In this document: piece after piece, positions 1 through 50,627 of the stretch
How positions within the stretch are numbered: position 1 is the first letter of the stretch
How the letters are laid out: every line of letters starts with the position of its first letter
Source: Candidatus Poribacteria bacterium
GTDB taxonomy: Bacteria; Poribacteria; WGA-4E; WGA-3G
Assembly: GCA_022394755.1 (NCBI GenBank)
Contig: JAGFCA010000028.1
Location: 3,237-67,236, forward strand
DNA length: 64,000 nt
Direction of reading: 5' to 3'
The notes under the pieces: generated by a model
Database searches by the model: none
What the model was told of the DNA's origin: nothing
The model's input: the letters and a program-made list of their open reading frames with translations, nothing else
Translations under genes and position numbers: made by a program

Positions 1-3000
1 GAAGATATTACACAAGAAACGTTCCTGAATGCATATCAAAAACTCTCTACGCTAAAGGAACCTCAGCGTTTCTCAAGTTGGCTCTATGTCATAGCAACCA
101 ACCGTTGTAAAGCATGGCTGTGTCAGAAACGTCTATGGACACAACCCTTGGATAAAGTAAGTAGTTCAGAATTAGAAAAAGCAACATATTCTGGACATAT
201 CATAGAAGAGAACAACAAAATGGCCGTGGAGACACAACATGAGGTTGTACAAAAACTACTTGAAAAGTTACAAGAGAGTGACCGGACAGTCATTTCACTC
301 TACTACCTTGGGGAAATGACATACGAGGAAATAAGCGAGTTTTTAGGCGTATCAATAGGTGCAATTAAAAGTCGACTTCACCGAGCAAGACAACGCCTTA
401 AGAAGGAGGAACCTATGATAAGAGAAGAACTTGAGCATTTTCAAATTTCACCTGCCCTCACAGAAAATATCATGCAAGAGATCGCACGACTTAAACCTGC
501 TGCACCTTCTACCAGCAAACCTTTGAACCCATGGGTGATAAGTGCAACAAGTACAGTTTTGATTGTACTAATGCTCGGTATAGGTAGTCAATACGTAGCA
601 CGTTTTCAGCAACCTTATAGTTTGGATGCGCAATCGGAAAGAGCAATTGAACTCATTGACGCGTTTATTGTGGAAAATGTTGACGTCAAACCGGAGTTCC
701 AAAATCAACTGGGAGCACGTTCCGATACGAATGATAAAAAAGGACGGAATGGTCGGAATGGTGAGAAAGCAAATCAGGTTTTAGGTGATAAAGATGATTA
801 CACTCGGTGGAATTTGCCTGAACACGCAAAGCAGCGGCTTGGAAAAGGTACTATAACCGATATGCATCTATCCCCTGATAGTTCCCACCTTGCTATTGTA
901 AGTTCTACCGGCGTATGGCTTTATGATGTTAACTTAGGGACTGAAACTTCCCTATTTAGGAAAGATACAGATTTAATAGGACTTGTCACGTTCTCACCGG
1001 AGGGCAAAACGCTTGTGAGTGCTGGCAGTGACAATATAATCCGAAGTTGGGATGTTGAGAGTGGAAAGCTGCTTATGAAATTCAATAGTCTTAGCGATTC
1101 ACTTTCCTCTTTGAAATTCTTAGATGATGGTAAAACACTTACTGGGACGAATTTGGATGGTACTGCCTGGTTTTGGAACATCGCTACCGGAGAACATCTA
1201 AAAACTTTTCATCCCGGGGTTTTAGATAAAGTAAAAATCAAAGACATACCTTGGCCCCGTGCATTAGATATCTATATTTTACCTACCGGCGTAGTCAAAT
1301 ATGCTATTGGAAACGAGGATGGCACAATCAGCCTGCAAGATGGACGGAGCATACAAGATGGAGGAACCAGTCAAGAGGTACGAACGCTTGTAGCTCGTAC
1401 AAATGATGCAGCATTTTTCAAGTTACTCGAAGAACATCGTGAAAAGGCAAATTTCAGGGTTGTAAGAATTCCTACGGATCCTGAAGAAGATGACGAAAAG
1501 CCATCTCCCACGAACTATAGGGAGGATGGTACACCATTTCCTATACAATACAATTTTCAAAAATACTCTCCATCGCATTTAGATAAACAACCTGTGAAAT
1601 GGGTAAAGGAACTGAAATTTTCACCGGATGGCAAAATGCTTGTGAGTAAGAGTCGTTATCGGATTTCAAAATCAGATGGTTGGTCAGGCGTTGCAGGTCC
1701 TACTGAAATTTGGAATGTTGATACCGGTGAACAGCTGGCAGCACTTCCTGAATACGTCGACGTAAAGTTTTCAGATGATAGCAAAACCCTCGCACTTATA
1801 TCACAGAATGCTTTCACAAGAGGAAACTGCGCAATATGGGATATTGTTAATCAATGTCAAATTGCTGAGTTTTTATCTACATCGTACGTAGAGTTTTCAG
1901 GTGATGGCAAAACCCTTAATATAAGAAAAGGTGACAGATATGATAGAAACTGGAATCTTATAGAAAGGGCAAGTTATACAATATGGGATATTGACACCCA
2001 AAGTGAAATTACCTCTCTTACTTTGGATGAATATCCGTTTTTACTTTTGTCTAAAAACCATCTGTTTTCTCAAGATGGAACAGTTCTTGTAACTGAGAAT
2101 CAAATTGGCACAGTAGATGTGTGGGACATAAAAAAGAGGGCACAGCCACGAGCCCTTACTAAAGACTACGCTCAAAAGATTACTACGTTGGCGTTTACCC
2201 ATGACGGCAAAACCTTAGCAAGCGGAGGTGACGGTAGTATCCAATTATGGGATACAGACAGTGGCGACAAATTGACTGCAATTAGTACGGGCAAAAACAA
2301 CATTGACGGTTTAACCTTTGCCAGAGACAATAATATCTTAAATGCTGTAGGATTCGCTTCCACCGTTCAGTGGGATGTCACCAGTGGAACCCTGATTAGT
2401 GCTAACACTATTCCGATTAGCTTGATAGGTCCTGGAGGAATCCAAACTTCTTGGGACGATGGAACATCATTTACATTCCCTATATATGTATATTCTCCAA
2501 ATTTCAGAACACTGGCTGCTAAAAATAGAACAAAGAATAAAAACAGTAAGATTGAGTTGTGGAATGTTACCACCCGTAAACATCTATGTAGTCTTACAGA
2601 AAAGGCGTATCAATCGGCTAAGGGAACTATGGCACTAACCCCAGATGGAAGCATCCTCGCAACCGATAATCGAACAGGTAAAGTGTTCTTGTGGGACACG
2701 CACACCGACAAACGAATTGCCACGCTCAATACACACGAAAATTTGATAAAAAAAGTGTTATTGGGAAGTCCTGGTATTTATGCTATGATATTTGATCCCG
2801 ATGGAAAAAACTTGGCAATCGGAATTGGAGATAAGGAGATCCAATTGTGGGAGATTAACGCTCAAAAATGTGTTAGAACCTTCAAAGCACTACATAAATA
2901 TGCAATCTGCAAATTGGCATTCTCGCCGGATGGCTCTCTTCTCGCGAGTGGAGATACGGGAGGTGAAATTCACTTATGGGAGGTGACCACTGGCACGCAT

Positions 3001-3126
3001 CTTGCCTCTTATGTAGGACATAAAGGTAATATCGGGGCTTTAGTGTTTTCCAAAGATAGGGAACTACTTGCGAGCACAAGCAGCCTTGATGGCACCGTCC
3101 TCTTGTGGGATGTGCCATTGAAATAG
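1..3126 (+). CDS. ECF-type sigma-70 factor (5' partial, continues upstream of window) fused in frame to a transmembrane helix and a large WD40 beta-propeller domain
   Basis: Frame 1 is open from nt 1. The N-terminal translation has sigma-70 region 2 (FLNAYQKL...WLYVIATNRCKAWL) and region 4 HTH (LYYLGEMTYEEISEFLGVSIGAIKSRLHRARQRL). A hydrophobic TM segment follows (WVISATSTVLIVLMLGIGS). After it come many WD40-like repeats (DGKTL..WD, SPDGK motifs). Confidence 0.8.
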   Translation, partial: EDITQETFLNAYQKLSTLKEPQRFSSWLYVIATNRCKAWLCQKRLWTQPLDKVSSSELEKATYSGHIIEENNKMAVETQHEVVQKLLEKLQESDRTVISLYYLGEMTYEEISEFLGVSIGAIKSRLHRARQRLKKEEPMIREELEHFQISPALTENIMQEIARLKPAAPSTSKPLNPWVISATSTVLIVLMLGIGSQYVARFQQPYSLDAQSERAIELIDAFIVENVDVKPEFQNQLGARSDTNDKKGRNGRNGEKANQVLGDKDDYTRWNLPEHAKQRLGKGTITDMHLSPDSSHLAIVSSTGVWLYDVNLGTETSLFRKDTDLIGLVTFSPEGKTLVSAGSDNIIRSWDVESGKLLMKFNSLSDSLSSLKFLDDGKTLTGTNLDGTAWFWNIATGEHLKTFHPGVLDKVKIKDIPWPRALDIYILPTGVVKYAIGNEDGTISLQDGRSIQDGGTSQEVRTLVARTNDAAFFKLLEEHREKANFRVVRIPTDPEEDDEKPSPTNYREDGTPFPIQYNFQKYSPSHLDKQPVKWVKELKFSPDGKMLVSKSRYRISKSDGWSGVAGPTEIWNVDTGEQLAALPEYVDVKFSDDSKTLALISQNAFTRGNCAIWDIVNQCQIAEFLSTSYVEFSGDGKTLNIRKGDRYDRNWNLIERASYTIWDIDTQSEITSLTLDEYPFLLLSKNHLFSQDGTVLVTENQIGTVDVWDIKKRAQPRALTKDYAQKITTLAFTHDGKTLASGGDGSIQLWDTDSGDKLTAISTGKNNIDGLTFARDNNILNAVGFASTVQWDVTSGTLISANTIPISLIGPGGIQTSWDDGTSFTFPIYVYSPNFRTLAAKNRTKNKNSKIELWNVTTRKHLCSLTEKAYQSAKGTMALTPDGSILATDNRTGKVFLWDTHTDKRIATLNTHENLIKKVLLGSPGIYAMIFDPDGKNLAIGIGDKEIQLWEINAQKCVRTFKALHKYAICKLAFSPDGSLLASGDTGGEIHLWEVTTGTHLASYVGHKGNIGALVFSKDRELLASTSSLDGTVLLWDVPLK

Positions 3127-3363: not shown

Positions 3364-6300
3364 TTACAATTCTGCACTTACAGTCATCTCTAACCGGTGT
3401 TCAGGTTTACGCTGTTTTGTTGAAAGAAGACGATAATTGAATCTGAATAATAGGTCCGTGAATTTACGCAACTTATAATCCACTGAGGTACGAACATCAT
3501 GACTTACTCCTTCATAAAAATAGTATTGAGCAAATGGAATACCTCCATCGCTTTTACCATAACCAAGTTTGTGGTTAATTTCAATCCGTCCTTTTCCAAA
3601 AATACTATAAATAAACTGATTCTCAAAGGAGAACGTCCGTGTCTTTGCATCAGGCTCTTCATCCAGTTGTTCTGTGTCAATTGTACGATTATATCCACCG
3701 ACACCACTCCACCGTATTGCGCGACTGATTTCATACTGTAGCTTCAATTCCGTTGTCCTCTCATATTGGTGTAGATCGGAAATTGGTATAGGTGGTAGAT
3801 CATCAACATCCGTGTTAGGATCCTCGTCTACATTTATCTCATCAAATTCAGAAAGATTAAGCTGACTATACCTCTCTTCTTCTCTACGTTGTTCCCAGTT
3901 TGCACCAATAGAGAGACGTTTCGTTGGATTTAAAGAGAAAGCAATATCCCAGGTACGGTAGTTCCTATGTCTTTCCTGTGTATTGATCCTTCTATTGAGT
4001 GAACGTCCGGTCCGGAAATTCACCTCAAAACTGAACCGTGGTGACGGGGAGATTTCCATGCGATGATGTTGGTTGATACGTCCAAAGAGTGTTTGTGAAT
4101 CTTGTAGATCTTGAAGCAGGTAAAGTGAAATTGCGTCTTCTGCTTCCTGTTCTTCTGTTAACCATAGACGTGTTTGTATTCTCAACGCGTTAAGAAACCA
4201 TGTGAATAGGTTATGTTTATTATCTACCTGTTTTGGTGTGTTTGCAGGAGTTGTTGGTGTCCGCAAGTTTTGTTCTATAGACTGTGTTCTGATGGTGTTG
4301 ATTTGGTTTCTGGCGCGGCGGGCAAGGAACAGACGTGGTTGAAGTCGTAATCGAAACGAAGCATCTACAGCAGTAGTAGGTTTATCACCGACATTTTGAT
4401 ATATTTTAATATATGTTCCCTCTTGTGTATCTTCCACATATCTTAGGTCATCCAGTCTAACATAGAAACCTTCACCGGGTTGGATCCGATGTCCTGTGAG
4501 AGGATGAATATCCGTATAGAATTCACGACGTTGGGTTGTGAGTTTTTTATCTAATTCATAGGTAATTTCAGCATCAACTGCACGATTGAATGGTGTGAAA
4601 TGGAGTGTTGTATCTGCCAATTGTGTAGTGGTATCTGTACCGAGATTGGAATGTGCTTTTACCATGCGTCGTGCGAGGTTTGTTTTTAGATTTACCCACT
4701 GTGCTTGTTGTGAAAAAAGCCCTACCTTCCATGTACGTGCTGTCGTAGCACGCATCCAATCAGAAATCCCCAAATATTCATCATCAAGGTTCAATAAGGG
4801 TTCTTTAGCATGTGTCTGTTCCAATTCGTAGCTTGTATTCATAGAAACCCATTTGAATTCAACAAGGTTAATGCTCCCCGAAGATCGGTTTCGTCTACGA
4901 TTTCGTGATGCAGTATAATCATCAATTGAGGTAAATCTATTAGATGTTCCAAGAAATTCAAAAGGTGAAAGCAGATAGGATAAACTCCCCTCTTGTCGTG
5001 ATTTCTGTATATTCTCATCTATACCCGTATCTACACTATTTTCCTCTATAATAGATGTGCTTTGATAGTTATTCCAACGGATGTTCGGCAATCTTCTTAG
5101 AAACGGTGTTTTTTCAGCAGGTTTATTAGTAGCACTGTTATCTATCGTAGTCGGGCTTCGTACGGAATCTGGTTGAAATGTGGTTCTATTAAAACCCGTT
5201 CCCCGAGTAAATATAGGTAAATTTGTACTTCCACTGCTTGAACGAGGTGTAAAGTTTGCCCCCCAATTAAAGTTATTTTTCAGTGTTGTCGGTCCTTCCT
5301 TCACTTCTTCAACAGATCTACCACCACCCAAAGCGAATTGCAGCCATTGATAGGGAAGTAGTTTAAAATCAAGGTTTAAGGTTTTCTCATCATTTGCTTG
5401 TGAAATCACACCTGGATCAAACAGTAATGCATCCTCAAAACCTTCAGTGGCGTATTGTGTTCCATACCGATCTCTATTTCTGTTGCTGCTTGATGCCCCA
5501 ACAGGTAGAAAATTAGCATCCATAGCTCGGACATCAATATTTCCAATTAGTTTTGGCTTAAACTTCTTAGACCATGTTGGAATTTCCCATCCTGTATAAC
5601 CGATAAGTTTCCATGCTTGATACAGATCTTTTCTGTCATTAGTGGAGTATGTATTCTTATCAATACCACTAAATGCCATTTCACAGTTGATCCAAGTCTG
5701 TTCAGTAAGGTTAAGTCGACTCTCCAATCCCCAGACAGTATGTTTTTGTGGTGGTGTAAGTAGGAAACCATCTCCATCAGGATCAAGCGTATTTTCACGG
5801 AGTGCCTGCAGATCCTCATCATCAAAAAGAACTAATGCCTGTTCAGGATCATCAATATCCGCTTCCACTGCGTAAGATGCCCCAAATGACAACCATTCCC
5901 TTGGAAGCGTAAACACACTATTGAGACCGTATAAATTTTGTTGATAGATACGATCTTCTGGTATATATTCAAAATCAACGCGGATGACATCGTTGCTTGT
6001 GATAAGATGTTTACTGTTAAATTCTATGATGGGATCACCGTATTCGCGTATGATGTAATCATTGTTTTCACCGCGTCGCATCTTCTCCCCGTTTAGCCAA
6101 ACGATTTCACTTCCAGCTTTAACAATAACAAACCTATCATCTACATTAAGCCTGTATTCACTACGTCCTTCTTCACCCCGAATAACTTTGCTTGTAGATT
6201 GTCCTTTTGGAAGTGCACTTGGGATAAGATGGAATTTCCCCCAATCGAAATCTCCTTCAACCTTAACACCTTCTAAAGCACGTGGAAAAAATATAAATTC

Positions 6301-7089
6301 TGATGGACCTAAAGATGCGTCAAAATCTCCTAATGTCCCTATCACGTTAGGATGTGTAATTCGAATTAATTTTTGGTTAATATCCTGAATATCCTCCGTC
6401 ATTCCTTCAGGTTGAATAGGTAAGTCCTGATCAGACAATATAGCCAAAACTTGTATATTATCTGAGACATTTCCTCTGACATTGATACGGAATTCTTGGT
6501 TTTGTGATAATGCGCGACCACTACCAACAGAAATTCCGAAAGTACGACTACCAGAATACTCTAACTGTGATGGTGTATTTGAAGATGATGAACTTGGAAC
6601 GGCTGGAGAAGTTTTTGGTTGGTTTACTAAATCAGGAGAAGAATCCTCTTTCTGTTCTTGTGCAGTCACATCCGATAGAGGATTCTTAAAGATGTCACGT
6701 TTGTATATCTTTAGAATATTGAAAGGTAAGGAACGATAGGTGATTATCCACTCGAAGACCTTCTGTTCGTCGATACTTTTATCGAAAGTAATGCTCCCTG
6801 ATGCGTAATCAATTTTGTAATCTTTCCTTCTTTCAAGTATGTCTCCGTTAATATTACGGATCTCTTCACTGTTTTCGACTATAGGAGGATGTTTGAGAGT
6901 CCATACCAGTTTATCTGGATCAATTTTTATTTTTTCTGTTTTATTAATAATGGAGAAAGTAGGTAATTTTAGTGAGGAATCTTGATTTTGAGATTCTGTT
7001 TGTGTGTAAGCACTGTTTATCAAAGAAAAAAAGAGGATTGTAATAAAGAAAACAGGTAAAGAAAGTAGAAATCTTGTAAACCCTTTCAT
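3364..7089 (-). CDS. Very large (about 1240 aa) secreted or outer-membrane protein of unknown function
   Basis: Long ORF. The likely start is MKGFTRFLLSLPVFFITILFFSLINSAYTQ, a signal peptide. The protein is rich in N, S, T and G and carries no recognisable catalytic motif. Confidence 0.6.
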   Translation of the reverse strand: MKGFTRFLLSLPVFFITILFFSLINSAYTQTESQNQDSSLKLPTFSIINKTEKIKIDPDKLVWTLKHPPIVENSEEIRNINGDILERRKDYKIDYASGSITFDKSIDEQKVFEWIITYRSLPFNILKIYKRDIFKNPLSDVTAQEQKEDSSPDLVNQPKTSPAVPSSSSSNTPSQLEYSGSRTFGISVGSGRALSQNQEFRINVRGNVSDNIQVLAILSDQDLPIQPEGMTEDIQDINQKLIRITHPNVIGTLGDFDASLGPSEFIFFPRALEGVKVEGDFDWGKFHLIPSALPKGQSTSKVIRGEEGRSEYRLNVDDRFVIVKAGSEIVWLNGEKMRRGENNDYIIREYGDPIIEFNSKHLITSNDVIRVDFEYIPEDRIYQQNLYGLNSVFTLPREWLSFGASYAVEADIDDPEQALVLFDDEDLQALRENTLDPDGDGFLLTPPQKHTVWGLESRLNLTEQTWINCEMAFSGIDKNTYSTNDRKDLYQAWKLIGYTGWEIPTWSKKFKPKLIGNIDVRAMDANFLPVGASSSNRNRDRYGTQYATEGFEDALLFDPGVISQANDEKTLNLDFKLLPYQWLQFALGGGRSVEEVKEGPTTLKNNFNWGANFTPRSSSGSTNLPIFTRGTGFNRTTFQPDSVRSPTTIDNSATNKPAEKTPFLRRLPNIRWNNYQSTSIIEENSVDTGIDENIQKSRQEGSLSYLLSPFEFLGTSNRFTSIDDYTASRNRRRNRSSGSINLVEFKWVSMNTSYELEQTHAKEPLLNLDDEYLGISDWMRATTARTWKVGLFSQQAQWVNLKTNLARRMVKAHSNLGTDTTTQLADTTLHFTPFNRAVDAEITYELDKKLTTQRREFYTDIHPLTGHRIQPGEGFYVRLDDLRYVEDTQEGTYIKIYQNVGDKPTTAVDASFRLRLQPRLFLARRARNQINTIRTQSIEQNLRTPTTPANTPKQVDNKHNLFTWFLNALRIQTRLWLTEEQEAEDAISLYLLQDLQDSQTLFGRINQHHRMEISPSPRFSFEVNFRTGRSLNRRINTQERHRNYRTWDIAFSLNPTKRLSIGANWEQRREEERYSQLNLSEFDEINVDEDPNTDVDDLPPIPISDLHQYERTTELKLQYEISRAIRWSGVGGYNRTIDTEQLDEEPDAKTRTFSFENQFIYSIFGKGRIEINHKLGYGKSDGGIPFAQYYFYEGVSHDVRTSVDYKLRKFTDLLFRFNYRLLSTKQRKPEHRLEMTVSAEL

Positions 7090-7132
7090 TCTTCTACCTT
7101 TCCATTGTTGTATCCTTCCAATCCTGTATATC

Positions 7133-8164
7133 TTATTCTGCTTTATTCGCATCTGATGTAGAATTCATCTTGTAAATCACATTGAAGACTTTAATATCTC
7201 CTGCATCCGTATCACTAACATATACTTGTCCGTTATCAGAGACAGCTATTCCGCAAGGGTTCAATAATGAATTTATAGTGAAATCAATGATAACATCACC
7301 TTCTTCGGTAAAGATCTGAATTCGTCTATTTCCACTATCTGTGACATACAGATAATTCCATTGGTCTGTTGTAATCCTTTTTGGTTCAATAAACTGTCCA
7401 AGACCACTTCCCTTCTCACCCCATGTCCGTATAGGATTTCCGCTAAAATCGAAACTTTTTATACTATGATTGCCTGTATCAACTACATACATAGTGCCAT
7501 GAGGATTTACAGTAATGTCAGTGGGATTCCAGAACTGTTCTCGGCTACTTCCAAAACTTCCCATTGTCATAACAGGCGCGAGGTTTCTATTGAATTGTAT
7601 CCAACGGTGATTTAAGGTATCAATTACAAAAACTTCACCATTTCGTCCAATACCAATTCCCTCAGGTGCATCAAATTGGATATCTTGTGTTGTATTGGAA
7701 ATAGGATAAAAAATTTGACTCAGTAAATTGCAGAACTGAACTCTATTATTCCCTGTATCGGCAACATAGAGCGTATCAAAACTGAGCGCAACATCATTTG
7801 GAAAATCAAACTCACCCTCTCGCCATCCATGGCTTCCTAATTCATTAACAAAGTGTCCATCCTTATCAATAATTTGTATTCTATTATTTCCTGCATCAGC
7901 GACATATAGTTGTTCATAGGCATCAATAATTAGTCCCATAGGATTTAGAAATTCCCCCGGTGCTTGTCCAATTCTCCCGATTGTTTTCATATAGTTTACA
8001 GCTAAAATCGGTGGAGCGTTGCGTCTTCGTATTGATGGGACAAAGTCAACATTAGGTATCGTTGTTTCTGATATGGGTGTGTTATTAGATTCTGGAATAG
8101 CGCAGCTCATAGTATAGAAAAGCATCGCTATGAGGACGAATCTTTTTGAAGTGAAAATCAAAAA
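7133..8164 (-). CDS. NHL-repeat beta-propeller protein, probably lipoprotein or secreted; start uncertain
   Basis: Repeated YVADxGNNR(I/V)Q motifs, typical of NHL repeats. The ORF is open to 8302 but would then overlap the upstream lipoprotein gene. A TTG start would give MIFTSKRFVLIAMLFYTMSC, a signal/lipobox-like N-terminus. Confidence 0.6.
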   Translation of the reverse strand, partial: FLIFTSKRFVLIAMLFYTMSCAIPESNNTPISETTIPNVDFVPSIRRRNAPPILAVNYMKTIGRIGQAPGEFLNPMGLIIDAYEQLYVADAGNNRIQIIDKDGHFVNELGSHGWREGEFDFPNDVALSFDTLYVADTGNNRVQFCNLLSQIFYPISNTTQDIQFDAPEGIGIGRNGEVFVIDTLNHRWIQFNRNLAPVMTMGSFGSSREQFWNPTDITVNPHGTMYVVDTGNHSIKSFDFSGNPIRTWGEKGSGLGQFIEPKRITTDQWNYLYVTDSGNRRIQIFTEEGDVIIDFTINSLLNPCGIAVSDNGQVYVSDTDAGDIKVFNVIYKMNSTSDANKAE

Positions 8165-8225
8165 AGACGTTATTGTGTATAACCTATTCGTGAATGTGAA
8201 ACTATTGTTTTGTTTTAGGACACGA

Positions 8226-8903
8226 TTACATCCGTTGCATCCTAAATTTAAAAACAAACGTTGTTTGATCACCATTGAATTCACTCGTAACTCGGGGAAC
8301 AATGATCCTTAGGTTTTTCGATTTATTACTCCGTTTTTTAAAATAAACAAAGAATCTGTGTGTGTTTTTCGGCATAATGTTTGTTTTTTTCAAATCTTCA
8401 GTTGGTAGAACTGCCGGATCACCTTGTACACGAATTGTCTTATCCCATCGAAAAACATCTGCTGCGAATTCTGGGGGTAATTTTGGTTTAAAAGACTTTT
8501 TAAAGTAGAAAGAGTGTTGTGATTTATCTATCTGTTTTACGATTTCACCTGATTGGTCAAGCATCTGGCAATCTTCTTTTATTAGACTAACCCAGTGATT
8601 TGTTCTGTTGTGAAGAATGATAGCGAATCCATCAAGATTCTTTACATCGTGGAGAGGAACGGCAATTGCGACGATACCATTTTTGGCATAAATTACAGCC
8701 CCTGTTTGAGGCGTAATATGTGCATCTGGATCAAAAACTGGAACAAGTCGTTCAGGTCTTAAAAAATCATTAATACTATCTGTAAAGGATGCACAGCCTG
8801 TTAAAGTAGTGGAAATAGTTAATATAATTAACATCGTGGAAATATACATTCCAATATTAGATAACTTGTGTCCAGAATTCATCGTTTTACAAAAACACCT
8901 CAT
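8226..8903 (-). CDS. Hypothetical lipoprotein
   Basis: AGGAGG ribosome-binding site upstream of the ATG. The N-terminus has a positively charged region, a hydrophobic stretch and the lipobox LTGC. Confidence 0.55.
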   Translation of the reverse strand: MRCFCKTMNSGHKLSNIGMYISTMLIILTISTTLTGCASFTDSINDFLRPERLVPVFDPDAHITPQTGAVIYAKNGIVAIAVPLHDVKNLDGFAIILHNRTNHWVSLIKEDCQMLDQSGEIVKQIDKSQHSFYFKKSFKPKLPPEFAADVFRWDKTIRVQGDPAVLPTEDLKKTNIMPKNTHRFFVYFKKRSNKSKNLRIIVPRVTSEFNGDQTTFVFKFRMQRM

Positions 8904-8976: not shown

Positions 8977-9927
8977 CTAATATGCTAACATCGCTGCCCC
9001 CACAAGTCCTGCTTGATTCCCTAATTTTGCAGGAACAATCTCCATGTTACTGGGTATATCCATTGTCCGTTGTTTAAATTCTCTCCGAATATGTTGAAAC
9101 AGTAAACTTTCCCCTGCAGCTGCGATTCCACCACCGATGATAGCAATCTGTGGGTTTAGAATGTGTGCGATTGATGTAAGAGCGATTCCAATGTATCTTC
9201 CTGTCTCAGAATAAATTTGTACAGCCAGTTCATCTCCATCGTTTGCGGCATTCGCAATCTGTTTCGGTGTTAAACTATCAGGATTCAAAGATGTTTTCAT
9301 ATCTTCTGCTATCCGTTGCTGTGTTCTTTCAATAATCCCTTTTGCCCCTGCGTATGCCTCAAGACATCCGAAATTACCGCATCCACACTTACGACCATTT
9401 GGTTGCACAATTGTATGTCCCAATTCACCTGCAGTATTCCAACTTCCGTGGTATACCTGTCTGTTAATAACGACACCTCCCCCAACCCCGGTACCGAGAG
9501 TGAGAGCAATAACATTCTCATATCCTATCCCAGCCCCGTGGTGCAACTCCCCTAATATCATCACGTTTACATCATTATCAATATATAGTGGTAGATCTAT
9601 ATCATCAAGTTCGGTTGATACATAATCCAGTAATGGAATATCTGTCCATCCAGGAAAATTTGGCGAAAAATGTATAATCCCGGAATTTGCGATGATGAGT
9701 CCTGGGGCTCCTATGCCGATTCCAATAATCTTCTTATTTTTTTCAGAATCAGATTCTACGGTATTTATGATCTTTCTGGCAGTTTCTGCAATACGAGTAG
9801 CTATAGGTTTTGCTCCCTCATCTACTTGCGTTGAAACAACCATTCGACAAGAAAGAGAACCGTCTTCACATAATAACCCTGCTTTAATGTCTGTTCCGCC
9901 AAGATCAATACCTATACTATAATTCAT
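8977..9927 (-). CDS. ROK-family sugar kinase (glucokinase / N-acetylglucosamine kinase-like)
   Basis: N-terminal GIDLGGT ATP-binding motif. ROK zinc motif CGCGNFGCLEAY is present. Confidence 0.8.
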   Translation of the reverse strand: MNYSIGIDLGGTDIKAGLLCEDGSLSCRMVVSTQVDEGAKPIATRIAETARKIINTVESDSEKNKKIIGIGIGAPGLIIANSGIIHFSPNFPGWTDIPLLDYVSTELDDIDLPLYIDNDVNVMILGELHHGAGIGYENVIALTLGTGVGGGVVINRQVYHGSWNTAGELGHTIVQPNGRKCGCGNFGCLEAYAGAKGIIERTQQRIAEDMKTSLNPDSLTPKQIANAANDGDELAVQIYSETGRYIGIALTSIAHILNPQIAIIGGGIAAAGESLLFQHIRREFKQRTMDIPSNMEIVPAKLGNQAGLVGAAMLAY

Positions 9928-9942: not shown

Positions 9943-11247
9943 TTAGTTATCAGATATCCATTTTATACGAGCACCGTCACCCGCATTGCATATATAAATC
10001 TGTGGTTCAATGCCAGTGTGTTTAGGATACTCATTATTAACCTTGTTTTGAAATTCATCTACTCTGTCTTGATAGACCAAATTAACAGTGCATCCGCCGA
10101 ATCCTGCTCCTGTCATACGCGCTCCAAAAACACCTTCAGTATTTTTTGCAATCTCAGTCAACAGATCTAACTCATCACAACTTACTTCGTAATCATCCCG
10201 TAACCCTTCGTGAGAAGCATTCATCAAAGTTCCGAAAGTTTCAACATCATTAGTTTTAAGCGCTGAAACGGCTTTCAGAACACGAGTGTTTTCCTCAACA
10301 ACATAACTACACCTCTTTTGTGTAATTTCAGGTAGTTTGTCTTCATATTTTTTAAAATCTTCTACGGAAATATCTCGAAGTGATGTAATAGAAGGCAGCC
10401 ATTGTTGTATTATCTTTACCCCATTTTCACATTCGGACCGTCGTTTATTGTATTCAGATGCAGCAAGTTCCCGTTTGACGTTTGTGTTGCAAATTACAAT
10501 CAGAATATCTGTTAAATTAAGTGGAATGTGTTCGTAATCCAGTGACCGGCAATCTAAAAACAGGGCATGATCCGCTTTACCTAATAATGATATAGTTGGA
10601 TCCATAATACCGCAGTTAACACCCGCGAATTCGTTTTCTGCACGTTGACATATTGAGGCTACTTCAAGCGGAGAACATTCAAGCACTTGAATACCGTTAT
10701 TTGTATTAACACTTGAATGTGGGATTTCTAAACCACACCCCCCTAAAAATGCTAACGTACTTGCCACCTCAAGTGCAGCGGAGGAACTCAATCCTGCACC
10801 AATTGGTACATTCCCTGTAATGACAGCCGTAATTCCATTCAGTGTGTGTTCACTTCCCTGGAGCACCTGTTCTTGTAAGAAATGGGCGACCCCCTTCAGA
10901 TAATTGCTCCAAGGTGGTGTATTTGACTCACGAATAGAGTCCAAATTAAAAACACATTCTTCTTCTACGTCTAATGCGTAAAGATGCACTTCCCTATCAG
11001 ATCTTTGGGAGGCTGCAATATGAAGGTATTTATCAATTGCAACAGGAAATACAAACCCATCATTATAATCGGTATGTTCACCAATTAGGTTTACTCTTCC
11101 TGGTGCAGAAACCATGAATTCTGGTGTATGTCCAAAACATTGATTAAAATCTTGTATCAATCTATTGGTAAAAATAGATTCATCCTGTATCATTCGATTC
11201 CTCGTTGTATGCCTTTGTGTGTATGATGAGACAATAGACTTAGTCAA
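9943..11247 (-). CDS. galK: Galactokinase (GHMP kinase)
   Basis: Galactokinase signature PGRVNLIGEHTDYNDGFVFP. GHMP ATP-binding motif PIGAGLSSSAA. The ATGA overlap with the upstream gene suggests translational coupling. Confidence 0.85.
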   Translation of the reverse strand: MTKSIVSSYTQRHTTRNRMIQDESIFTNRLIQDFNQCFGHTPEFMVSAPGRVNLIGEHTDYNDGFVFPVAIDKYLHIAASQRSDREVHLYALDVEEECVFNLDSIRESNTPPWSNYLKGVAHFLQEQVLQGSEHTLNGITAVITGNVPIGAGLSSSAALEVASTLAFLGGCGLEIPHSSVNTNNGIQVLECSPLEVASICQRAENEFAGVNCGIMDPTISLLGKADHALFLDCRSLDYEHIPLNLTDILIVICNTNVKRELAASEYNKRRSECENGVKIIQQWLPSITSLRDISVEDFKKYEDKLPEITQKRCSYVVEENTRVLKAVSALKTNDVETFGTLMNASHEGLRDDYEVSCDELDLLTEIAKNTEGVFGARMTGAGFGGCTVNLVYQDRVDEFQNKVNNEYPKHTGIEPQIYICNAGDGARIKWISDN

Positions 11248-12008
11248 TTAGATGCGGAAGATGAAAAAAACTTCAAAAAACGTGCTATCACCATGTGCAA
11301 GTCTGACCGAGGAACATAGGTATCCACAGAAATATCTGGCATATTTTGGTTGATATCACGATTTTTTTCAGGTAGGAGTTGTTCTTCAGGCGCATGTAAA
11401 GCAGGCTGGGGATGAGTCCGCGCTGTATTATCTAATTCAGAGGTGCATTCTGCGATGACAATTTCACCGACTGGGAGATGTGACCTCAACTGTCCATTTC
11501 CTGTTTCGGTCAAAACTGTTATATATGGGAGCGATTTATCTGATAATTTCTCTAATTGTAGGAGTAATGGAACAATATCAGGAAAAGAGAGTTTTGATTC
11601 AACAGGATTAGCAGTAAAAACAGAGAGTAATGGAATAGATTTATCTAATGCGGTTAAAATTGCTTCAGAAAACGATTTAATATGGCGTTTTTCCAAAATT
11701 GATTCGTGTTGAAGAATAAATAGACTAACGGAATGTCCACCAATATTCTCCTCAATAGCAAGTACATCGTTGGTGAAATCTTCTGGTGTGTTATCCTCGT
11801 TAATAAACTCTTCTTCATCAGTAGGTTGTATATCTAATAGGAGATTGTGTCTATTTTCAAGCGACAATGGAAACAATTCCTTACACTTTGGACAGATAAA
11901 ACCGTTACGTTTTAATTCTCCTCTGAAAGAAACTTCACTACATTGTGTACATTTATGCCATAAACTGATGTTTTCCTCGGTAATATCGTTATTTCTTATG
12001 TGTTCCAT
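11244..12008 (-). CDS. AccD-like protein: acetyl-CoA carboxylase carboxyltransferase-beta N-terminal zinc ribbon plus degenerate carboxyltransferase domain
   Basis: WHKCTQCSEVSFRGELKRNGFICPKCKELF...RHNLLLD aligns with the AccD C4 zinc ribbon ([38 protein letters not shown]). LPYITVLTETGNGQL corresponds to AccD LPYISVLTDPTMGGV. The glycine-rich catalytic motifs (FMGGSMG, SGGARMQE) are replaced. Confidence 0.6.
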   Translation of the reverse strand: MEHIRNNDITEENISLWHKCTQCSEVSFRGELKRNGFICPKCKELFPLSLENRHNLLLDIQPTDEEEFINEDNTPEDFTNDVLAIEENIGGHSVSLFILQHESILEKRHIKSFSEAILTALDKSIPLLSVFTANPVESKLSFPDIVPLLLQLEKLSDKSLPYITVLTETGNGQLRSHLPVGEIVIAECTSELDNTARTHPQPALHAPEEQLLPEKNRDINQNMPDISVDTYVPRSDLHMVIARFLKFFSSSASN

Positions 12009-12063: not shown

Positions 12064-12408
12064 TTATTGAAAACTTGCTATTGCTTCAGCCTCTGTATCA
12101 TATCTATCAAAAATTGTTACAAGTTTAGCCATTATAATGAGACTTCTGATGTTGCCACCGATATTAAGTAGCACAACTCTTCCATCATTACGTCGTATAG
12201 AGGCGTATGCGGCTACAATGACACCTAATCCTGAACTATCCATCATCTGTACACGTTCCATATTTAAAATCATGGACACAGGTTCACCTTCAGCAACACG
12301 TATTTGATCATCTATTATGTTTTTTAGTTCTACAGTATTGGGACCTACAAGATTCCCTTCAATATCCAATATAATAACATTACCCTTAATTCTTTGATTA
12401 ATCTTCAT
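12064..12408 (-). CDS. STAS-domain anti-sigma-factor antagonist (SpoIIAA/RsbV-like)
   Basis: Size of 114 aa. DSSGLGVIV phosphorylatable-serine region typical of the STAS domain. Confidence 0.8.
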   Translation of the reverse strand: MKINQRIKGNVIILDIEGNLVGPNTVELKNIIDDQIRVAEGEPVSMILNMERVQMMDSSGLGVIVAAYASIRRNDGRVVLLNIGGNIRSLIIMAKLVTIFDRYDTEAEAIASFQ

Positions 12409-12542: not shown

Positions 12543-12968
12543 TTAATTGTCGGTTTGTCTATATTTCACCATCTTGACAACGGTACCGTCTGCCTCGTAA
12601 CCTACCTCATCCATGTAGGCTTCCATAAGAAAAAGGCCTCTCCCACTGCTTTTGAGTAGGTTTTCTGGTTCAAGTGGATTTGCGACATCTTCGCGTTGAA
12701 ACCCTGAGCCTTCATCTGTTATGATAATCGTAAGTTGGCTATCGTCAATAAGGAATTCAAATGTTGCTGTCTTATCCACATCTTCCTTATTACCGTGCTT
12801 GATTGCATTTGTCCCTGCTTCAATAACAGCTAAATTTACATGCTCTTGCGTTTCCTCATCAAACTTCATCTCTCTAAGTAAGTCGGTGATGACAGTGTCG
12901 AGTAAATAAATTAGATGCATTGTGCTTGGGAGAGAAAGTAATATTCTCCATTGAGTTTTCTCGCCCAC
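12543..12968 (-). CDS. Anti-sigma regulatory factor, Ser/Thr protein kinase (RsbW/SpoIIAB-like, HATPase_c)
   Basis: LAVIEAGTNAIKHG N-box. IIITDEGSGF G1 box. Size of about 140 aa. Confidence 0.75.
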   Translation of the reverse strand: MGEKTQWRILLSLPSTMHLIYLLDTVITDLLREMKFDEETQEHVNLAVIEAGTNAIKHGNKEDVDKTATFEFLIDDSQLTIIITDEGSGFQREDVANPLEPENLLKSSGRGLFLMEAYMDEVGYEADGTVVKMVKYRQTDN

Positions 12969-13065
12969 GTGTTAGGCTCCTTCCAGATGTTAATAATTCA
13001 ATTTAGATTATACCATAGTAAATACGTCTTACTGTATACTAATATGCTATTTGTAACAATTCTAC

Positions 13066-14307
13066 CTATTCTTCAATTCGCTTAATTACAACTACAGCGC
13101 GATCATCCTTGAGTTGTGTGGTACCGCTATATTCCATTAAATCGGTTTGGAGAGCATCACATAGCCCTTCAGCAGAGCAATTAAGTTTTTCTGACATACG
13201 CTCAATCAGCCGTTCTTCACCATAAAATTCATTTGGGGTTTTCCCTTCTGTTTCAGTCACACCATCTGTATAAAGCATCAAGACATCGCCATGGGATAAT
13301 TGACAAGTTGCCGACGAAAATGTGGCAATATCAAACGCACCTATCAACATCCCACCGGTATTGAGTAAATCTACTTGATACCTATCTTTTGAAGATTCAT
13401 CATTATTGTTTGTACCGTTGATAAAATGAATCGGTGGACAATGTCCTCCATTTGAATATGTAAAAGCACCTGTTCGTATATCTAATATACCGTATACCAT
13501 TGTTGCAAATTGTTCAAGATCGGTATTATGAAAAAGTAATGTGTTAATCCGTTTCAAAATTGTCGCTGGACTATCTGCCTCATTACTAAGTAAACGTGAT
13601 GCCGTCTGAATCATAACCATGAGCAGTGCAGCAGGAATTCCATGCCCTTTCACGTCCCCCAATACCACACCAAGGCGAGACTCTCCAAGCGGAATAAAAT
13701 CATAAAAGTCACCGGAAACAGAGGTAGAACTTCGAAACATTGTAGCAAAGTCATATCCTGGAATCGTTGGTGGTTTTTCCGGTAGCAGTCTCTCTTGTAT
13801 TTCTGCAGCTGCTTGCAGATGAGATCCGAGTTCAGCGACCCCTGCTTCTGTAAATCCTTCCCCCATAGCATTAATCAAAGGGTTAATATACTTTACAGGA
13901 CGGGTTCGACCTAAAACAGTGTTAATTCTTGCGGTCACCTCACGTAAATCAAACGGTTTTGTAATATAATCATCGCCACCAAGTTCTAATCCAACCAATT
14001 TGTCTTCGGTCTGTGTACGGGCAGTTATCCATAAAACGGGAATTGAATTTGTCTCATTATCTTCTTTTAACTTCCCGATAACCTCTAAACCGTCCATTTG
14101 TGGCATCATGACATCAAGCAATATCAGATCTGGTTGGTCATCTTTTGCAAGTTGGAGACCGGTTAGCCCATTATTAGCAGTAATGACTTGGAATCCATCT
14201 GATGTTAAACTTATTTTCAGGAGTTCAAGTATATCAGTATCATCATCAATTACTAAGATGGTTTCATTTGTTGATGCTTCTTCAGATTGGAAAATAGTTT
14301 CTGCCAT
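13066..14307 (-). CDS. Response-regulator receiver domain fused to PP2C/SpoIIE-type phosphatase (RsbU-like)
   Basis: REC motifs ILVIDDD...DLILLDVMMPQMDG...YITKPF. The C-terminal PP2C region is SGDFYDF...GDVKGHGIPAALLM. Confidence 0.8.
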   Translation of the reverse strand: MAETIFQSEEASTNETILVIDDDTDILELLKISLTSDGFQVITANNGLTGLQLAKDDQPDLILLDVMMPQMDGLEVIGKLKEDNETNSIPVLWITARTQTEDKLVGLELGGDDYITKPFDLREVTARINTVLGRTRPVKYINPLINAMGEGFTEAGVAELGSHLQAAAEIQERLLPEKPPTIPGYDFATMFRSSTSVSGDFYDFIPLGESRLGVVLGDVKGHGIPAALLMVMIQTASRLLSNEADSPATILKRINTLLFHNTDLEQFATMVYGILDIRTGAFTYSNGGHCPPIHFINGTNNNDESSKDRYQVDLLNTGGMLIGAFDIATFSSATCQLSHGDVLMLYTDGVTETEGKTPNEFYGEERLIERMSEKLNCSAEGLCDALQTDLMEYSGTTQLKDDRAVVVIKRIEE

Positions 14308-14637: not shown

Positions 14638-17112
14638 CTAAGATAAAAACGGAATCCAGAATTGAAAGTTGCATCCCATATTATTTTTTCCAGTATCAAC
14701 CCAAATTTTCCCTTTATGCGCCTCAACAAATCCTTGTGCGATGGAAAGCCCTAAACCACTCCCTCCTTGTTCCCGAGTCTGTATATTACTCAGTTGTCGA
14801 AATTTATCAAAAACGGATTCTCTCTCTTGTTCTGGTATACCTGGTCCGGTATCTATTACTTCAACATGGATACCATCCTGATCATCAATATTTTCTGATA
14901 TTACTTCATCATGGGGGTATCCTTTACGAGAAATTTTTACATCTACTTCACCGTTTTCAGGTGTGAATTTAATTGCGTTTCCAACCAGATTTGTGAGAAT
15001 TTGTCCAATATATTCTGCATCGCCGCTGGGTTGAGGTAATTCGGATTCAATATTTAGATCTAACTTGACAGTTTTTTCATCTGCTTGTGGTTTTAGTTCT
15101 TCAACCCGTTGCTCAGCTATCTCACCGATGTTTACAGGTTCAAGTTTCATAACAATTCGTCCCGCTTCAATGCGAGAAATATCAAGAAGATCATTAATCA
15201 TTGTAGCAAGTCTTTTAGATTGTCGATGCGCGCGGGTTAAGCTCTGTTGTTGCACATCGTTTAAAGGTCCGGCTTTACCATCAAGTATAAGTGAAATAAA
15301 TCCTATTATTGATGTTAAGGGGGTACGTAATTCATGAGAAACAAGAGCGACAAAATCAGATTTCATTTTATCAATCTCATGTTCACGTGTTATGTCGTCA
15401 AACACATAAATCATTCCCGCCATATTTGGGTTTTCAGTAGATGTATCTTCTGTATTGGTAGCAACACTGGTAGAAGCGTATTGACTGGATACAACCCTAA
15501 GTATCCGATTTTCCCCCTCTTTATCTAAATTTATCTCTACAGTAGCGCGTGTATCCTGAGCTTGAGCATTCTCCAATACAGTTAGATTAGTTGCTCGTAG
15601 CAATTCTGTAAACCGATTTGGAAATTGTGATGTCTCGTCAAAGTTTAACAGGTATTTTGCTGCTGGATTGAAGTATAGTATTTGATCAGATGTATTTACG
15701 ACAATCAGACCTTCCCCGAGACAATCGACAATGGTAGTCATCTGTTCTTCAGCATTAATAAGTTTGTCGACAGCGATTTTCAGACTATGATGCATGTCGT
15801 TGAATTCTTGTGCGAGCATGCCGACTTCGTTTCGACTATCCACAGAGATCACATCCTGATCTTCATCTTGGTACCATTGCATCTTTGCTATCTGTTGACG
15901 AATTTGATTTGATTCCTGTTGAATCACATCTTTAGCTTCTTGTCCAATTCGTTTTGCAGTTTGTGTAAGTTGCATAACAGGTTGTGTGATGCGTTGTGCC
16001 ACCATATAAGCAATTGGAATAACAATCACACAGGAAGCAAGTGTAACCCATAAGACATACTGATTAAGTTTAACAACTCCAGCAAAGGCTTGTGATGTAG
16101 GGTATGAAACAAAGACAATCCAGTTTGCGAAATTTTGATCATTTTTCCAAGGTTGTCGTCTTGAGGGTCGTGTTCTTGCCCATCCATATACGCGTGATTC
16201 AAAGTTCCGATCTTCTTCACCTTCTGCTTCATATCCATAAAAATCGCCATTTCTCCCTTTTTTTGCCTCAATAATTGCTCTTGCCGTAGCATTTTCTATT
16301 TGCATCTGATCATTAGCTTTATAATTACTCTCTGCTGAAGCGGCAATGATTCTTCCAGATTGACTTGTGAGGATAGTGTATGTCTTTTCCATTTGTGGTC
16401 GTAATTCAACTATATTTGCAAGTTCTCTTAAGTTTAGAACGACCCTAAGTACACCGACAGTTTTTCTTTCTTCTATAGGTGTTCTTATATTTCCTGTACG
16501 TATTGGTAATGCAGCTGAAATGAAATGCACATTCTGGGTCTCATCATATTCCACATCCTCAATATACTGATAACCTCTATTATTGCTAAATGCTCTATTC
16601 CACCAATTTTGATCCGCAACATTAGAGAGTATATTATTTTTGTGATTATCTTCAAACGTTCTATTATTAGAACATAGAACATCACCTTTGGAATTTGTGA
16701 TAGTCACTTCGCTTCTATTAGCGCGTCTAAATCCGCGTCTTCTATATCCACTCCCGGCATAAGATTCAAACAACCGTACACTATCTTCTAAACGCTGCCA
16801 CGCATCTGCAAAAACCTGTATATCCCCTTTTGCATTATTAGATTCTGTTACCACGGATCTAATATTCGGTAATTCTGTATATATTTTTCCTATTTTATCG
16901 GATATTGCGCGGTCAATACGGAACAGTTTTTCTTGTGCTAACTGAACTAAACCTTCTCCAACGCTACTTTTCAAGGTACTTGTACCAAGATATTTAATTG
17001 TTAATGATACCACTAACAGTGGTGTAAGTGATACGAGTAGAAACAAAACAACCTGTTGTCCGCGCAGCCCTATCTTAAACCGTGCAAGCTTCCCAGGTTT
17101 TTCGTTTTTCAT
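14638..17112 (-). CDS. Membrane sensor histidine kinase (2 TM, large periplasmic domain, HAMP, PAS, HisKA, HATPase)
   Basis: HisKA H-box VSHELRTPLTSIIGF. HATPase N/G boxes LVGNAIKFT, DTGPGIP, GGSGLGLSI. Two hydrophobic segments flank a periplasmic domain of about 300 aa. GGAGAG ribosome-binding site before MKNEK. Confidence 0.85.
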   Translation of the reverse strand: MKNEKPGKLARFKIGLRGQQVVLFLLVSLTPLLVVSLTIKYLGTSTLKSSVGEGLVQLAQEKLFRIDRAISDKIGKIYTELPNIRSVVTESNNAKGDIQVFADAWQRLEDSVRLFESYAGSGYRRRGFRRANRSEVTITNSKGDVLCSNNRTFEDNHKNNILSNVADQNWWNRAFSNNRGYQYIEDVEYDETQNVHFISAALPIRTGNIRTPIEERKTVGVLRVVLNLRELANIVELRPQMEKTYTILTSQSGRIIAASAESNYKANDQMQIENATARAIIEAKKGRNGDFYGYEAEGEEDRNFESRVYGWARTRPSRRQPWKNDQNFANWIVFVSYPTSQAFAGVVKLNQYVLWVTLASCVIVIPIAYMVAQRITQPVMQLTQTAKRIGQEAKDVIQQESNQIRQQIAKMQWYQDEDQDVISVDSRNEVGMLAQEFNDMHHSLKIAVDKLINAEEQMTTIVDCLGEGLIVVNTSDQILYFNPAAKYLLNFDETSQFPNRFTELLRATNLTVLENAQAQDTRATVEINLDKEGENRILRVVSSQYASTSVATNTEDTSTENPNMAGMIYVFDDITREHEIDKMKSDFVALVSHELRTPLTSIIGFISLILDGKAGPLNDVQQQSLTRAHRQSKRLATMINDLLDISRIEAGRIVMKLEPVNIGEIAEQRVEELKPQADEKTVKLDLNIESELPQPSGDAEYIGQILTNLVGNAIKFTPENGEVDVKISRKGYPHDEVISENIDDQDGIHVEVIDTGPGIPEQERESVFDKFRQLSNIQTREQGGSGLGLSIAQGFVEAHKGKIWVDTGKNNMGCNFQFWIPFLS

Positions 17113-17189
17113 TGATACTCTCCTATAATCTATACCATACACATCCTGGCAGAACTCAGATTACAATCTTAAATATTTGCAATCCTATC

Positions 17190-17549
17190 CTATGTAAATG
17201 CGTTGAGAGCAGCTTCTTTTGTATCGTATACCTCTAAAATCGACGTAAGACGCGTAATTTCAAGTATACTGCTAACAGCTTGCTGCGGACTCAGCAGTAC
17301 CAATTTTCCTTCCGATCTTTGTAAGATTTGCCATGTAATAATTATAACACCAAGTGCAGTACTGTCAAGCAATGGAACATTCGTTAGATCAATGATCAGG
17401 TTTACATTCCCAATTTCCATTTGTTGGTGAAGTGCCTGACGAAATTCTACAACAGTGTTTCCAATTATTTTTCCATTTACTTGGACAATGGCAGTATTTT
17501 GAGCATCAGTCGTGATATCAATCATTCCATAAAACTCCTTCAGTAGCAA
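17190..17549 (-). CDS. Second STAS-domain anti-sigma-factor antagonist
   Basis: Size of about 115 aa. LLDSTALGVII STAS motif. Alternative start MIDIT at 17525. Confidence 0.75.
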   Translation of the reverse strand: MLLKEFYGMIDITTDAQNTAIVQVNGKIIGNTVVEFRQALHQQMEIGNVNLIIDLTNVPLLDSTALGVIIITWQILQRSEGKLVLLSPQQAVSSILEITRLTSILEVYDTKEAALNAFT

Positions 17550-50148: not shown

Positions 50149-50149
50149 C

Positions 50150-50627
50150 CTGCTCCCTGCCTAAGTTCTAAGGCTATAAACACATGTTATGCACAATTGC
50201 TGTGCATAACTCCTAAATTCTTGTTGATAACTTGTTGATAACTTGTTGATAACTTCACTCGCGATAATTGTATTAACAAATTGTCAATAATTACAAAATT
50301 GAATACACATGTTATCAACACCCCTAATCTCAAATACCATAAACGATTAGAGCAGTTATCAACTTATGCACACCCCCTACTACTACTGCTAATTACAATT
50401 TTAAATTATATGTAATTATTAATATAATTAATATAGGTGAATAATTACGAAATAGATAATTTTAAATTTAGGTTGTAGATAATAGGTATATTTGCAAGCA
50501 ATCATTATGGTATAGTTTATTAGTTGATATGAGATTTTTTTGAATGACAAGTTTATATAGTAAGGAAATTTCAAAATCTTATATTAAACTGAAGATAAAT
50601 ATATACACCCAAACGAGTGGAGTTTAG
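50150..50627. promoter_or_regulatory. Probable oriC: DnaA-box cluster plus AT-rich DNA-unwinding element
   Basis: Three tandem CTTGTTGATAA units (TTATCAACA boxes) at 50221-50256. Further boxes TGTTATCAACA, GTTATCAACT and inverted TTATGCACA/TGTGCATAA. An extremely AT-rich tract follows at 50390-50480. Confidence 0.7.

Follow-up and report, generated by a model that had tools for sequence, protein, structure and literature searches.

Why should a protein with the zinc ribbon and fold of AccD, the carboxyltransferase beta subunit of acetyl-CoA carboxylase (ACC), but without its catalytic motifs, be encoded among signalling genes? The question is raised by a 64,000-nucleotide stretch of a Candidatus Poribacteria genome (GCA_022394755.1, contig JAGFCA010000028.1, positions 3,237 to 67,236 of the forward strand), referred to here as the window, in which the minus-strand gene at 11244..12008 encodes a 254-residue protein that we call pseudo-AccD. 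An identical protein at NCBI (JT359_07255, from a Candidatus Poribacteria metagenome-assembled genome, or MAG) is annotated as hypothetical. A first-pass annotation of the window had described a catalytically dead AccD relative, translationally coupled to galK and heading a sugar-kinase operon, with a repurposed and possibly RNA-binding regulatory role. As set out below, we found that the gene is conserved and is linked, in nearly all of the sponge-associated Poribacteria loci that we compared, to a partner-switching cassette, and we conclude that pseudo-AccD most likely works in signalling, rather than as an enzyme or in the control of galactokinase.

The relationship to AccD was addressed by domain, profile and structure comparisons. 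Residues 17-42 of pseudo-AccD matched Pfam Zn_ribbon_ACC (PF17848) at 28.8 bits, above the gathering score of 24.5 (E 1.4e-6); this Cys4 zinc ribbon is encoded at 11883..11960 (minus strand), and every subgroup of the family described below has kept its cysteines, C20, C23, C39 and C42, without variation. When pseudo-AccD alone was compared with the PDB sequences by phmmer, only AccD chains were returned (E. coli AccD, E 3e-11), and a profile made from 49 family members matched AccD chain 9m70_A with an E value of 1.6e-21 (profile positions 15-248 on chain positions 24-280) and E. coli AccD with one of 7.7e-21. An AlphaFold2 model of pseudo-AccD built on the family alignment (predicted local distance difference score, pLDDT, 77.9; predicted template modelling score, pTM, 0.76) had E. 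coli AccD (2f9y_B) and Staphylococcus aureus AccD (2f9i_B) as its top Foldseek matches, at template modelling (TM) scores of 0.59 to 0.61. We regard the AccD ancestry of the protein, as judged from the profiles, and its modelled fold as secure. The zinc ribbon and the carboxyltransferase fold named in the first-pass annotation were thus both borne out, and placement in an unrelated family was not, as the profile matches AccD over nearly its full length.

Like AccD, pseudo-AccD has an N-terminal Cys4 ribbon, a crotonase-type core and the same order of secondary-structure elements, and the LPxI(S/T)VLT and (L/V)G(D/E)xxxAE blocks are retained, as is the xDxxVxRxxL helix at the C terminus. Unlike AccD, it lacks the FMGGSMG, SGGARMQE, PTxGGV and GFAGPR motifs, it is acidic, its genomic partners are signalling genes instead of acc genes, and it falls far under the AccD family cutoff (TIGR00515, 47.8 bits against 317.45). 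The carboxyl transferase family PF01039 gave no match in a Pfam scan of pseudo-AccD, and for the family as a whole PF17848 is the sole precomputed Pfam assignment. The protein is shorter than a functional AccD, as had been pointed out, because the linker of about 30 residues that follows the ribbon (approximately residues 70-105 in E. coli) is deleted.

To define the lost motifs, we made an alignment of 99 family members (subgroups of 49, 46 and 4) and 28 canonical AccDs and listed the columns that were at least 85% conserved in the canonical proteins. Residue numbers are those of E. coli AccD and are consistent with the PDB alignments and with the cysteine numbers given in PMC2831308. The canonical-conserved columns kept by the family were W24, Cys 27/30/46/49, R60, E220, D258 and R263. 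Gone from every subgroup were F129-G139 (FMGGSMGxxxG), S162-E169 (SGGARMQE), P201/T202/G204/G205 (PTxGGV), A208/S209 and G229 (GFAGPR), and the four named motifs, which are 86 to 100% conserved in the 28 canonical AccDs, were absent from all 99 family sequences. We take G204/G205 of the PTxGGV loop to be the oxyanion-hole glycine pair. Both columns are 100% Gly in the canonical proteins, whereas the aligned positions are variable within the family: in one subclade (the P0001 type) 33% of the members have G at the first position, while at the second 47% have P and 35% have Q, and the window protein has G172 and Q173.

In the window protein itself, an LPYITVLTE block (11505..11531, minus strand) is kept from canonical LPYISVLTDP, and the TETGNGQ that follows it, at the place of canonical DPTMGGV, replaces the PTxGGV oxyanion-hole loop. 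A second block, QPALHAPEEQ (11379..11408, minus strand), corresponds in position to canonical GFAGPRVIEQ and falls in a loop that was modelled with low confidence; it is invariant among 49 aligned P0001-type members and missing from the other subclades. We considered whether a frameshift or a sequencing error might be hiding the motifs and ruled this out, because over 140 independent sequence clusters (94 plus about 50) show the same architecture without the motifs. The loss of the catalytic glycine motifs, which the first-pass annotation had noticed in the single sequence, is thus a property of the family and extends to all four blocks.

The family comprises 94 clusters at 37 to 100% identity plus about 50 further clusters at 41 to 100% identity to a second type, P0100. 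In all of these the open reading frame (ORF) is intact with its invariant residues, down to about 25% identity, and the parts kept across divergent members are the ribbon, LPxITVLT, PxG(D/E)xVxAE and the C-terminal xDxYVxRxxL...FF helix. All named members come from Candidatus Poribacteria except P0105, from a MAG labelled Deltaproteobacteria. Members of the P0001 type are about 240 to 260 residues long and have QPALHAPEEQ, those of the P0100/P0096 type are about 267 to 280 residues long and do not, and on complete or near-complete, megabase-scale Poribacteria contigs the P0001 and P0100 types never occur together, as judged from the lengths of the contigs, none of which is common to both types. 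Three remoter motif-less groups, the P0103/P0105/P0108, P0104 and P0110/P0111 types, were also found. The P0001 type is strongly acidic: its isoelectric point (pI) is 4.7, against an average of 8.0 for canonical AccDs, and the part outside the ribbon has a net charge of about -18.

Because the gene has been kept intact across the whole phylum, these alignments argue for a conserved family with a repurposed, non-catalytic role and against a decaying gene. That much of the role proposed in the first-pass annotation is supported; its setting in a sugar-kinase operon is not. This phylum-wide, AccD-derived pseudoenzyme family is undescribed, and our literature searches on AccD pseudoenzymes or a dead AccD family, and on a carboxyltransferase-like protein in a partner-switching cassette, returned nothing relevant. 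JGI/IMG names six members (P0008, P0062, P0262, P0282, P0294 and P0305) acetyl-CoA carboxylase carboxyl transferase subunit beta, and NCBI calls them hypothetical; given the JGI labels, metabolic reconstructions of sponge symbionts that are based on KEGG Orthology (KO) may take the dead protein for accD. Separately, the profile search returned additional motif-less AccD-like zinc-ribbon groups among metagenome representatives at 50% identity (P0117-P0120, P0162, P0175 and P0176; P0121, P0128, P0130 and P0200; P0116, P0192 and P0234), and dead AccD copies may accordingly be commoner than has been recognised.

Directly upstream of pseudo-AccD in the window, on the same strand, is a cassette of five signalling genes. 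At its head is STAS1 (17190..17549), a second anti-sigma-factor antagonist, followed by a sensor histidine kinase (HAMP-HisKA-HATPase_c; 14638..17142), identified by orthology with its counterpart in locus L001, and a fusion of a response regulator to a PP2C (SpoIIE) phosphatase (RR/PP2C; 13066..14307), also identified by orthology. Next come an RsbW-like serine kinase or anti-sigma factor with an HATPase_c_2 domain (12543..12968) and STAS2, an RsbV/SpoIIAA-type anti-sigma-factor antagonist (12064..12408), the end of which lies 55 nt before the pseudo-AccD start. The two antagonists scored 69 bits (STAS1) and 61 bits (STAS2) with TIGR00377, for which the cutoff is 53.45, and STAS2 carries the phosphorylation motif DSSGLG. 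The RsbW-like protein matched PF13581 (E 5.9e-26), the RsbW model (E 7e-21) and PDB RsbW 6m36 (E 2e-13), and it resembles both RsbW and SpoIIAB. Orthologues of the RR/PP2C protein carry Response_reg and SpoIIE domains; the window gene shares 79% identity with its counterpart in L001, and the NCBIfam model that its product matches best over the full length is that of the receiver-PP2C regulator RssB. No sigma-factor gene was found inside the cassette in domain scans of the window and of loci L001-L003.

Pseudo-AccD had been placed at the head of an operon, but it does not head one: five co-directional genes precede it, the nearest 55 nt away, and no terminator-like site is predicted between on that strand. 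We also considered a promoter or terminator that would part the gene from its neighbours and rejected it: the counts of promoter-like and terminator-like sites in the region were at or below shuffle expectation, and none of the predicted terminator-like sites was on the coding strand between 8800 and 17700. As a separate observation, 17341-17368 (minus strand) holds a perfect sigma-70 consensus (TTGACA, 16 nt, TG, TATAAT; 12/12) inside the STAS1 ORF and just before the histidine-kinase start. Its sequence makes it a candidate internal promoter of the genes from the kinase to pseudo-AccD, in a region where promoter-like counts are not above chance.

To ask how stable this arrangement is, we compared 15 loci, the window and 14 others, in which pseudo-AccD is from 67% down to 24% identical to the window protein. 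RsbW and STAS genes lie directly upstream of it in 13 of the 15 (the window, L001-L003, L005-L007, L010 and L090-L094). The full order STAS1, histidine kinase, RR/PP2C, RsbW, STAS2, pseudo-AccD is found in the window, L001-L003, L005-L007, L010 and L090-L092, and L093 (from a Poribacteria MAG at NCBI) and L094 (a contig from a JGI metagenome, picked out by a custom DNA pattern) have the order parA, parB, STAS, RsbW, pseudo-AccD, with the RsbW gene of L094 overlapping the pseudo-AccD start by 20 nt. This is the layout of spoIIAA-spoIIAB-sigF, with pseudo-AccD in the sigma-factor slot. The trio of RsbW, STAS and pseudo-AccD survives changes of both flanks and order: L005 is without gidA and gidB upstream and without galK and ROK downstream, in L010 an M24 peptidase gene follows pseudo-AccD, and in L093 and L094 the internal order itself has changed. 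Occupying the position of the sigma partner in 13 of the 15 loci and the exact sigma slot in L093 and L094, pseudo-AccD is a candidate target of the RsbW-like protein.

On these observations of homology, fold, motif loss, conservation and linkage we base a model in which we infer every physical interaction and the downstream target. We lean towards the view that pseudo-AccD is a non-catalytic descendant of AccD that serves as the non-sigma partner of a partner-switching module, as its output or as a co-sensor. In such a scheme the histidine kinase would signal to the PP2C phosphatase, which would remove phosphate from STAS; unphosphorylated STAS would then capture the RsbW-like protein and so alter its hold on pseudo-AccD, and freed pseudo-AccD would act either by binding a protein, such as AccA or the ACC complex, or by way of its zinc ribbon. 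In its simplest form, RsbW would bind pseudo-AccD alternately with STAS. A variant would make pseudo-AccD an acyl-CoA-binding co-sensor, much as RsbQ serves RsbP as a co-sensor. We also entertain, as a bolder and rather doubtful version, a dead ACC subunit that replaces the sigma factor altogether: sensing through the kinase and the PP2C phosphatase would free it from the RsbW-like protein, after which it would titrate AccA and so hold back malonyl-CoA and lipid synthesis, or else act on nucleic acid through the ribbon. If true, a stress-signalling switch would be connected directly, at the post-translational level, to central lipid metabolism.

The cassette resembles RsbV-RsbW-SigB and SpoIIAA-SpoIIAB-SigF in having a STAS antagonist with a phospho-serine motif, an RsbW-type HATPase_c_2 kinase, a receiver-PP2C fusion preceded by a histidine kinase and, in L093 and L094, the order STAS-RsbW-X. 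The same input from a kinase to an RR-PP2C protein is known from RsbK-RsbY of Bacillus cereus. It differs from these systems in that the third gene encodes an AccD-derived pseudoenzyme and not a sigma factor, in that there are two STAS genes, and in that RsbW binding is putative. Non-canonical partner-switching systems with unknown or non-sigma outputs have been documented (PMC8256260, PMC13555669), including a receiver-PP2C phosphatase that controls a STAS-glycosyltransferase (HenR-All4160; PMC13555669). SypA/SypE, BtrUVW, HmpUVW and HenR-All4160 share with the Poribacteria cassette the PP2C/STAS/serine-kinase logic without an adjacent sigma factor, and an enzyme-like output (PMC8256260, PMC13555669), but none of them has a carboxyltransferase-like protein, and in All4160 STAS is fused to the enzyme, whereas the proteins of the Poribacteria cassette are separate. 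The targets of the non-canonical class are mostly unknown (PMC8256260), and pseudo-AccD is a concrete candidate for such a missing output. The cassette proteins are small and soluble-looking, so that the predicted interactions can be tested in a heterologous host although the Poribacteria are uncultured.

Several observations weigh against a role in partner switching. L009 has a sulfatase gene upstream of pseudo-AccD in place of the signalling genes, and L008 has no STAS gene in the 200 nt visible upstream. Pseudo-AccD is also the fastest-evolving gene of the cassette, at about twice the rate of its neighbours (where it is 24 to 31% identical, RsbW is 48 to 63%, STAS2 55 to 58% and RR/PP2C 51 to 58% identical), which could mean weak constraint. 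Long syntenic blocks surround the Poribacteria origin (recR, gidA, gidB), and some of the adjacency could be historical. Finally, several loci have genes for extracytoplasmic function (ECF) sigma factors a few kb away, and it could be these that the module really targets.

One alternative to a partner-switching role is that pseudo-AccD directly regulates ACC as a dead subunit, pairing with AccA instead of AccD independently of its signalling neighbours. Plant BADC proteins, which are dead paralogues of the biotin carboxyl carrier protein (BCCP), inhibit the heteromeric ACCase. They resemble pseudo-AccD in being a catalytically dead paralogue of an ACC subunit kept as an intact, conserved gene; they differ in deriving from another subunit in another kingdom, and contact of pseudo-AccD with ACC is hypothetical. 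The retained carboxyltransferase-beta core and C-terminal helix, together with R60, E220, D258 and R263, which are invariant in canonical AccDs and non-catalytic, would fit such a protein. However, the linker is deleted, Pfam scans of the window and examination of the other loci revealed no acc genes, and the persistent linkage to RsbW and STAS would go unexplained. We therefore consider direct regulation of ACC unlikely as a complete account, although it is compatible with partner switching as the downstream step of that scheme.

A second alternative, that the adjacency is inherited synteny without a functional tie and that the protein has an unrelated or weakly constrained function, strikes us as comparably improbable. 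The whole block from recR through M28, gidA and gidB to the NHL gene is collinear in many Poribacteria, and the rapid evolution of pseudo-AccD within it is in keeping with such a history. Against it stand the retention of the RsbW-STAS-pseudo-AccD trio in L005, L010, L093 and L094, where flanks and internal order have changed, and the intact, invariant-bearing ORF in clusters as remote as about 25% identity.

A slightly weaker alternative again is that proposed in the first-pass annotation, in which pseudo-AccD would regulate translation of the galK and ROK genes by binding RNA through its zinc ribbon. E. coli carboxyltransferase binds its own mRNAs through its zinc ribbon (PMC2831308), the Cys4 ribbon of pseudo-AccD is invariant, and galK (416 residues; 9943..11193, minus strand) follows pseudo-AccD in the window, L001, L002, L003 and L007. 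The junction between the two genes had been read as an ATGA overlap of stop and start. We found that the overlap with the galK frame reads TTGA, and that the TTG at 11247 is not conserved as a start: the L001 orthologue starts at the position that matches the window ATG at 11193, after an identical GAGGAATCGA spacer. This conserved ATG lies 50 nt past the pseudo-AccD stop and is preceded by a GAGGA site, and elsewhere the gap between the two genes is 37, 62, 116 or 194 nt. Translational coupling to galK is thus unsupported.

Conservation of the pairing, offered as a check on the coupling, proved limited. We found galK within three genes downstream of pseudo-AccD in 6 of the 15 loci, the sixth being L008, where an orthologue (52% identity) lies three genes 3′ of a divergent pseudo-AccD; it is absent from beside the gene in the nine others (L005, L006, L009, L010 and L090-L094), among them L006, which has ROK. 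Some lineages thus do have a genuine link to sugar kinases, but it is a secondary one. The body of the P0001-type protein is, moreover, very acidic, as described above, where canonical AccDs are not. This weakens the case for RNA-binding translational control, which is nevertheless possible given the invariant ribbon, and as an account of the gene we hold it to be quite unlikely. At L008 (1319-6337), pseudo-AccD is followed by two nucleotidyltransferase genes, the galactokinase orthologue and a gene for a second GHMP kinase, a set that looks like one for salvage of sugar-1-phosphates or nucleoside diphosphate (NDP) sugars.

That pseudo-AccD is a genuine, very divergent and still catalytic Poribacteria AccD is highly improbable because every catalytic block is lost, including residues that are 100% conserved in the canonical proteins, and because the aligned oxyanion positions vary, TIGR00515 scores far below cutoff and PF01039 is unmatched, even though JGI labels several members as the beta subunit and a canonical Poribacteria accD was not located. 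Searches for canonical accD or accA in Poribacteria genomes by profile, hidden Markov model (HMM) and contig pattern, and in papers and their supplements, located none, and a canonical-AccD HMM run over the window and loci L001-L007 found the pseudo-AccDs only. A contig scan with a zinc-ribbon pattern common to canonical AccDs yielded 79 irrelevant canonical accD loci (L011-L089), with L010 alone informative. The best canonical match to the family profile, P0304, is deltaproteobacterial, and Hydrogenedentes are among the top canonical representatives. To call pseudo-AccD a paralogue of AccD, as the first-pass annotation did, is to go beyond what is proven.

Downstream of galK in the window, all on the minus strand, are genes for a ROK-family sugar kinase (8977..9927), matched by family search, a conserved 225-residue protein (8226..8903), an NHL-repeat beta-propeller (7133..8302), matched by domain, and a 1262-residue protein (3364..7152) that forms the conserved end of the block. 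The ROK and NHL genes had been named in the first-pass annotation, and both were recovered by our domain scans. In genomes without galK and ROK the gene for the 225-residue protein directly follows pseudo-AccD, as in L090-L092, where it and the NHL propeller gene come next. The 225- and 1262-residue proteins gave no Pfam or NCBIfam match; they are 53 to 66% and 45 to 73% identical, respectively, between loci and accompany the NHL propeller in most of them. In the window (148-3126, plus strand), L002 (20047-20723) and L007 (20199-20720), a gene convergent with the end of this block encodes a fusion, of about 990 residues, of ECF sigma-factor regions (r2/r4) to many WD40 beta-propeller repeats; judged from its domains, the protein could be what the partner-switching module targets instead.

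The window has a GC content of 39% and lies near the replication origin, with dnaA, recF, dciA, gyrB, gyrA, gidA, gidB, recR and dnaX present. At 48814-51788 (plus strand), recF comes directly after dnaA, without an ORF of dnaN size (at least 150 residues) between the two, and dciA, gyrB and gyrA come next; the dnaA-recF arrangement of this origin-proximal region is unusual. At 43436-46517 (plus strand), a gene for a C-5 cytosine DNA methylase overlaps one for a 663-residue GHKL (HATPase_c_3) protein, and from their sequences the pair may serve in restriction-modification or defence. Among the other loci, L006 carries a DarT/NADAR toxin-antitoxin pair (44-1516) upstream of gidA, and L092 has an IS605 OrfB/TnpB-like gene (12969-14096) near the conserved block.

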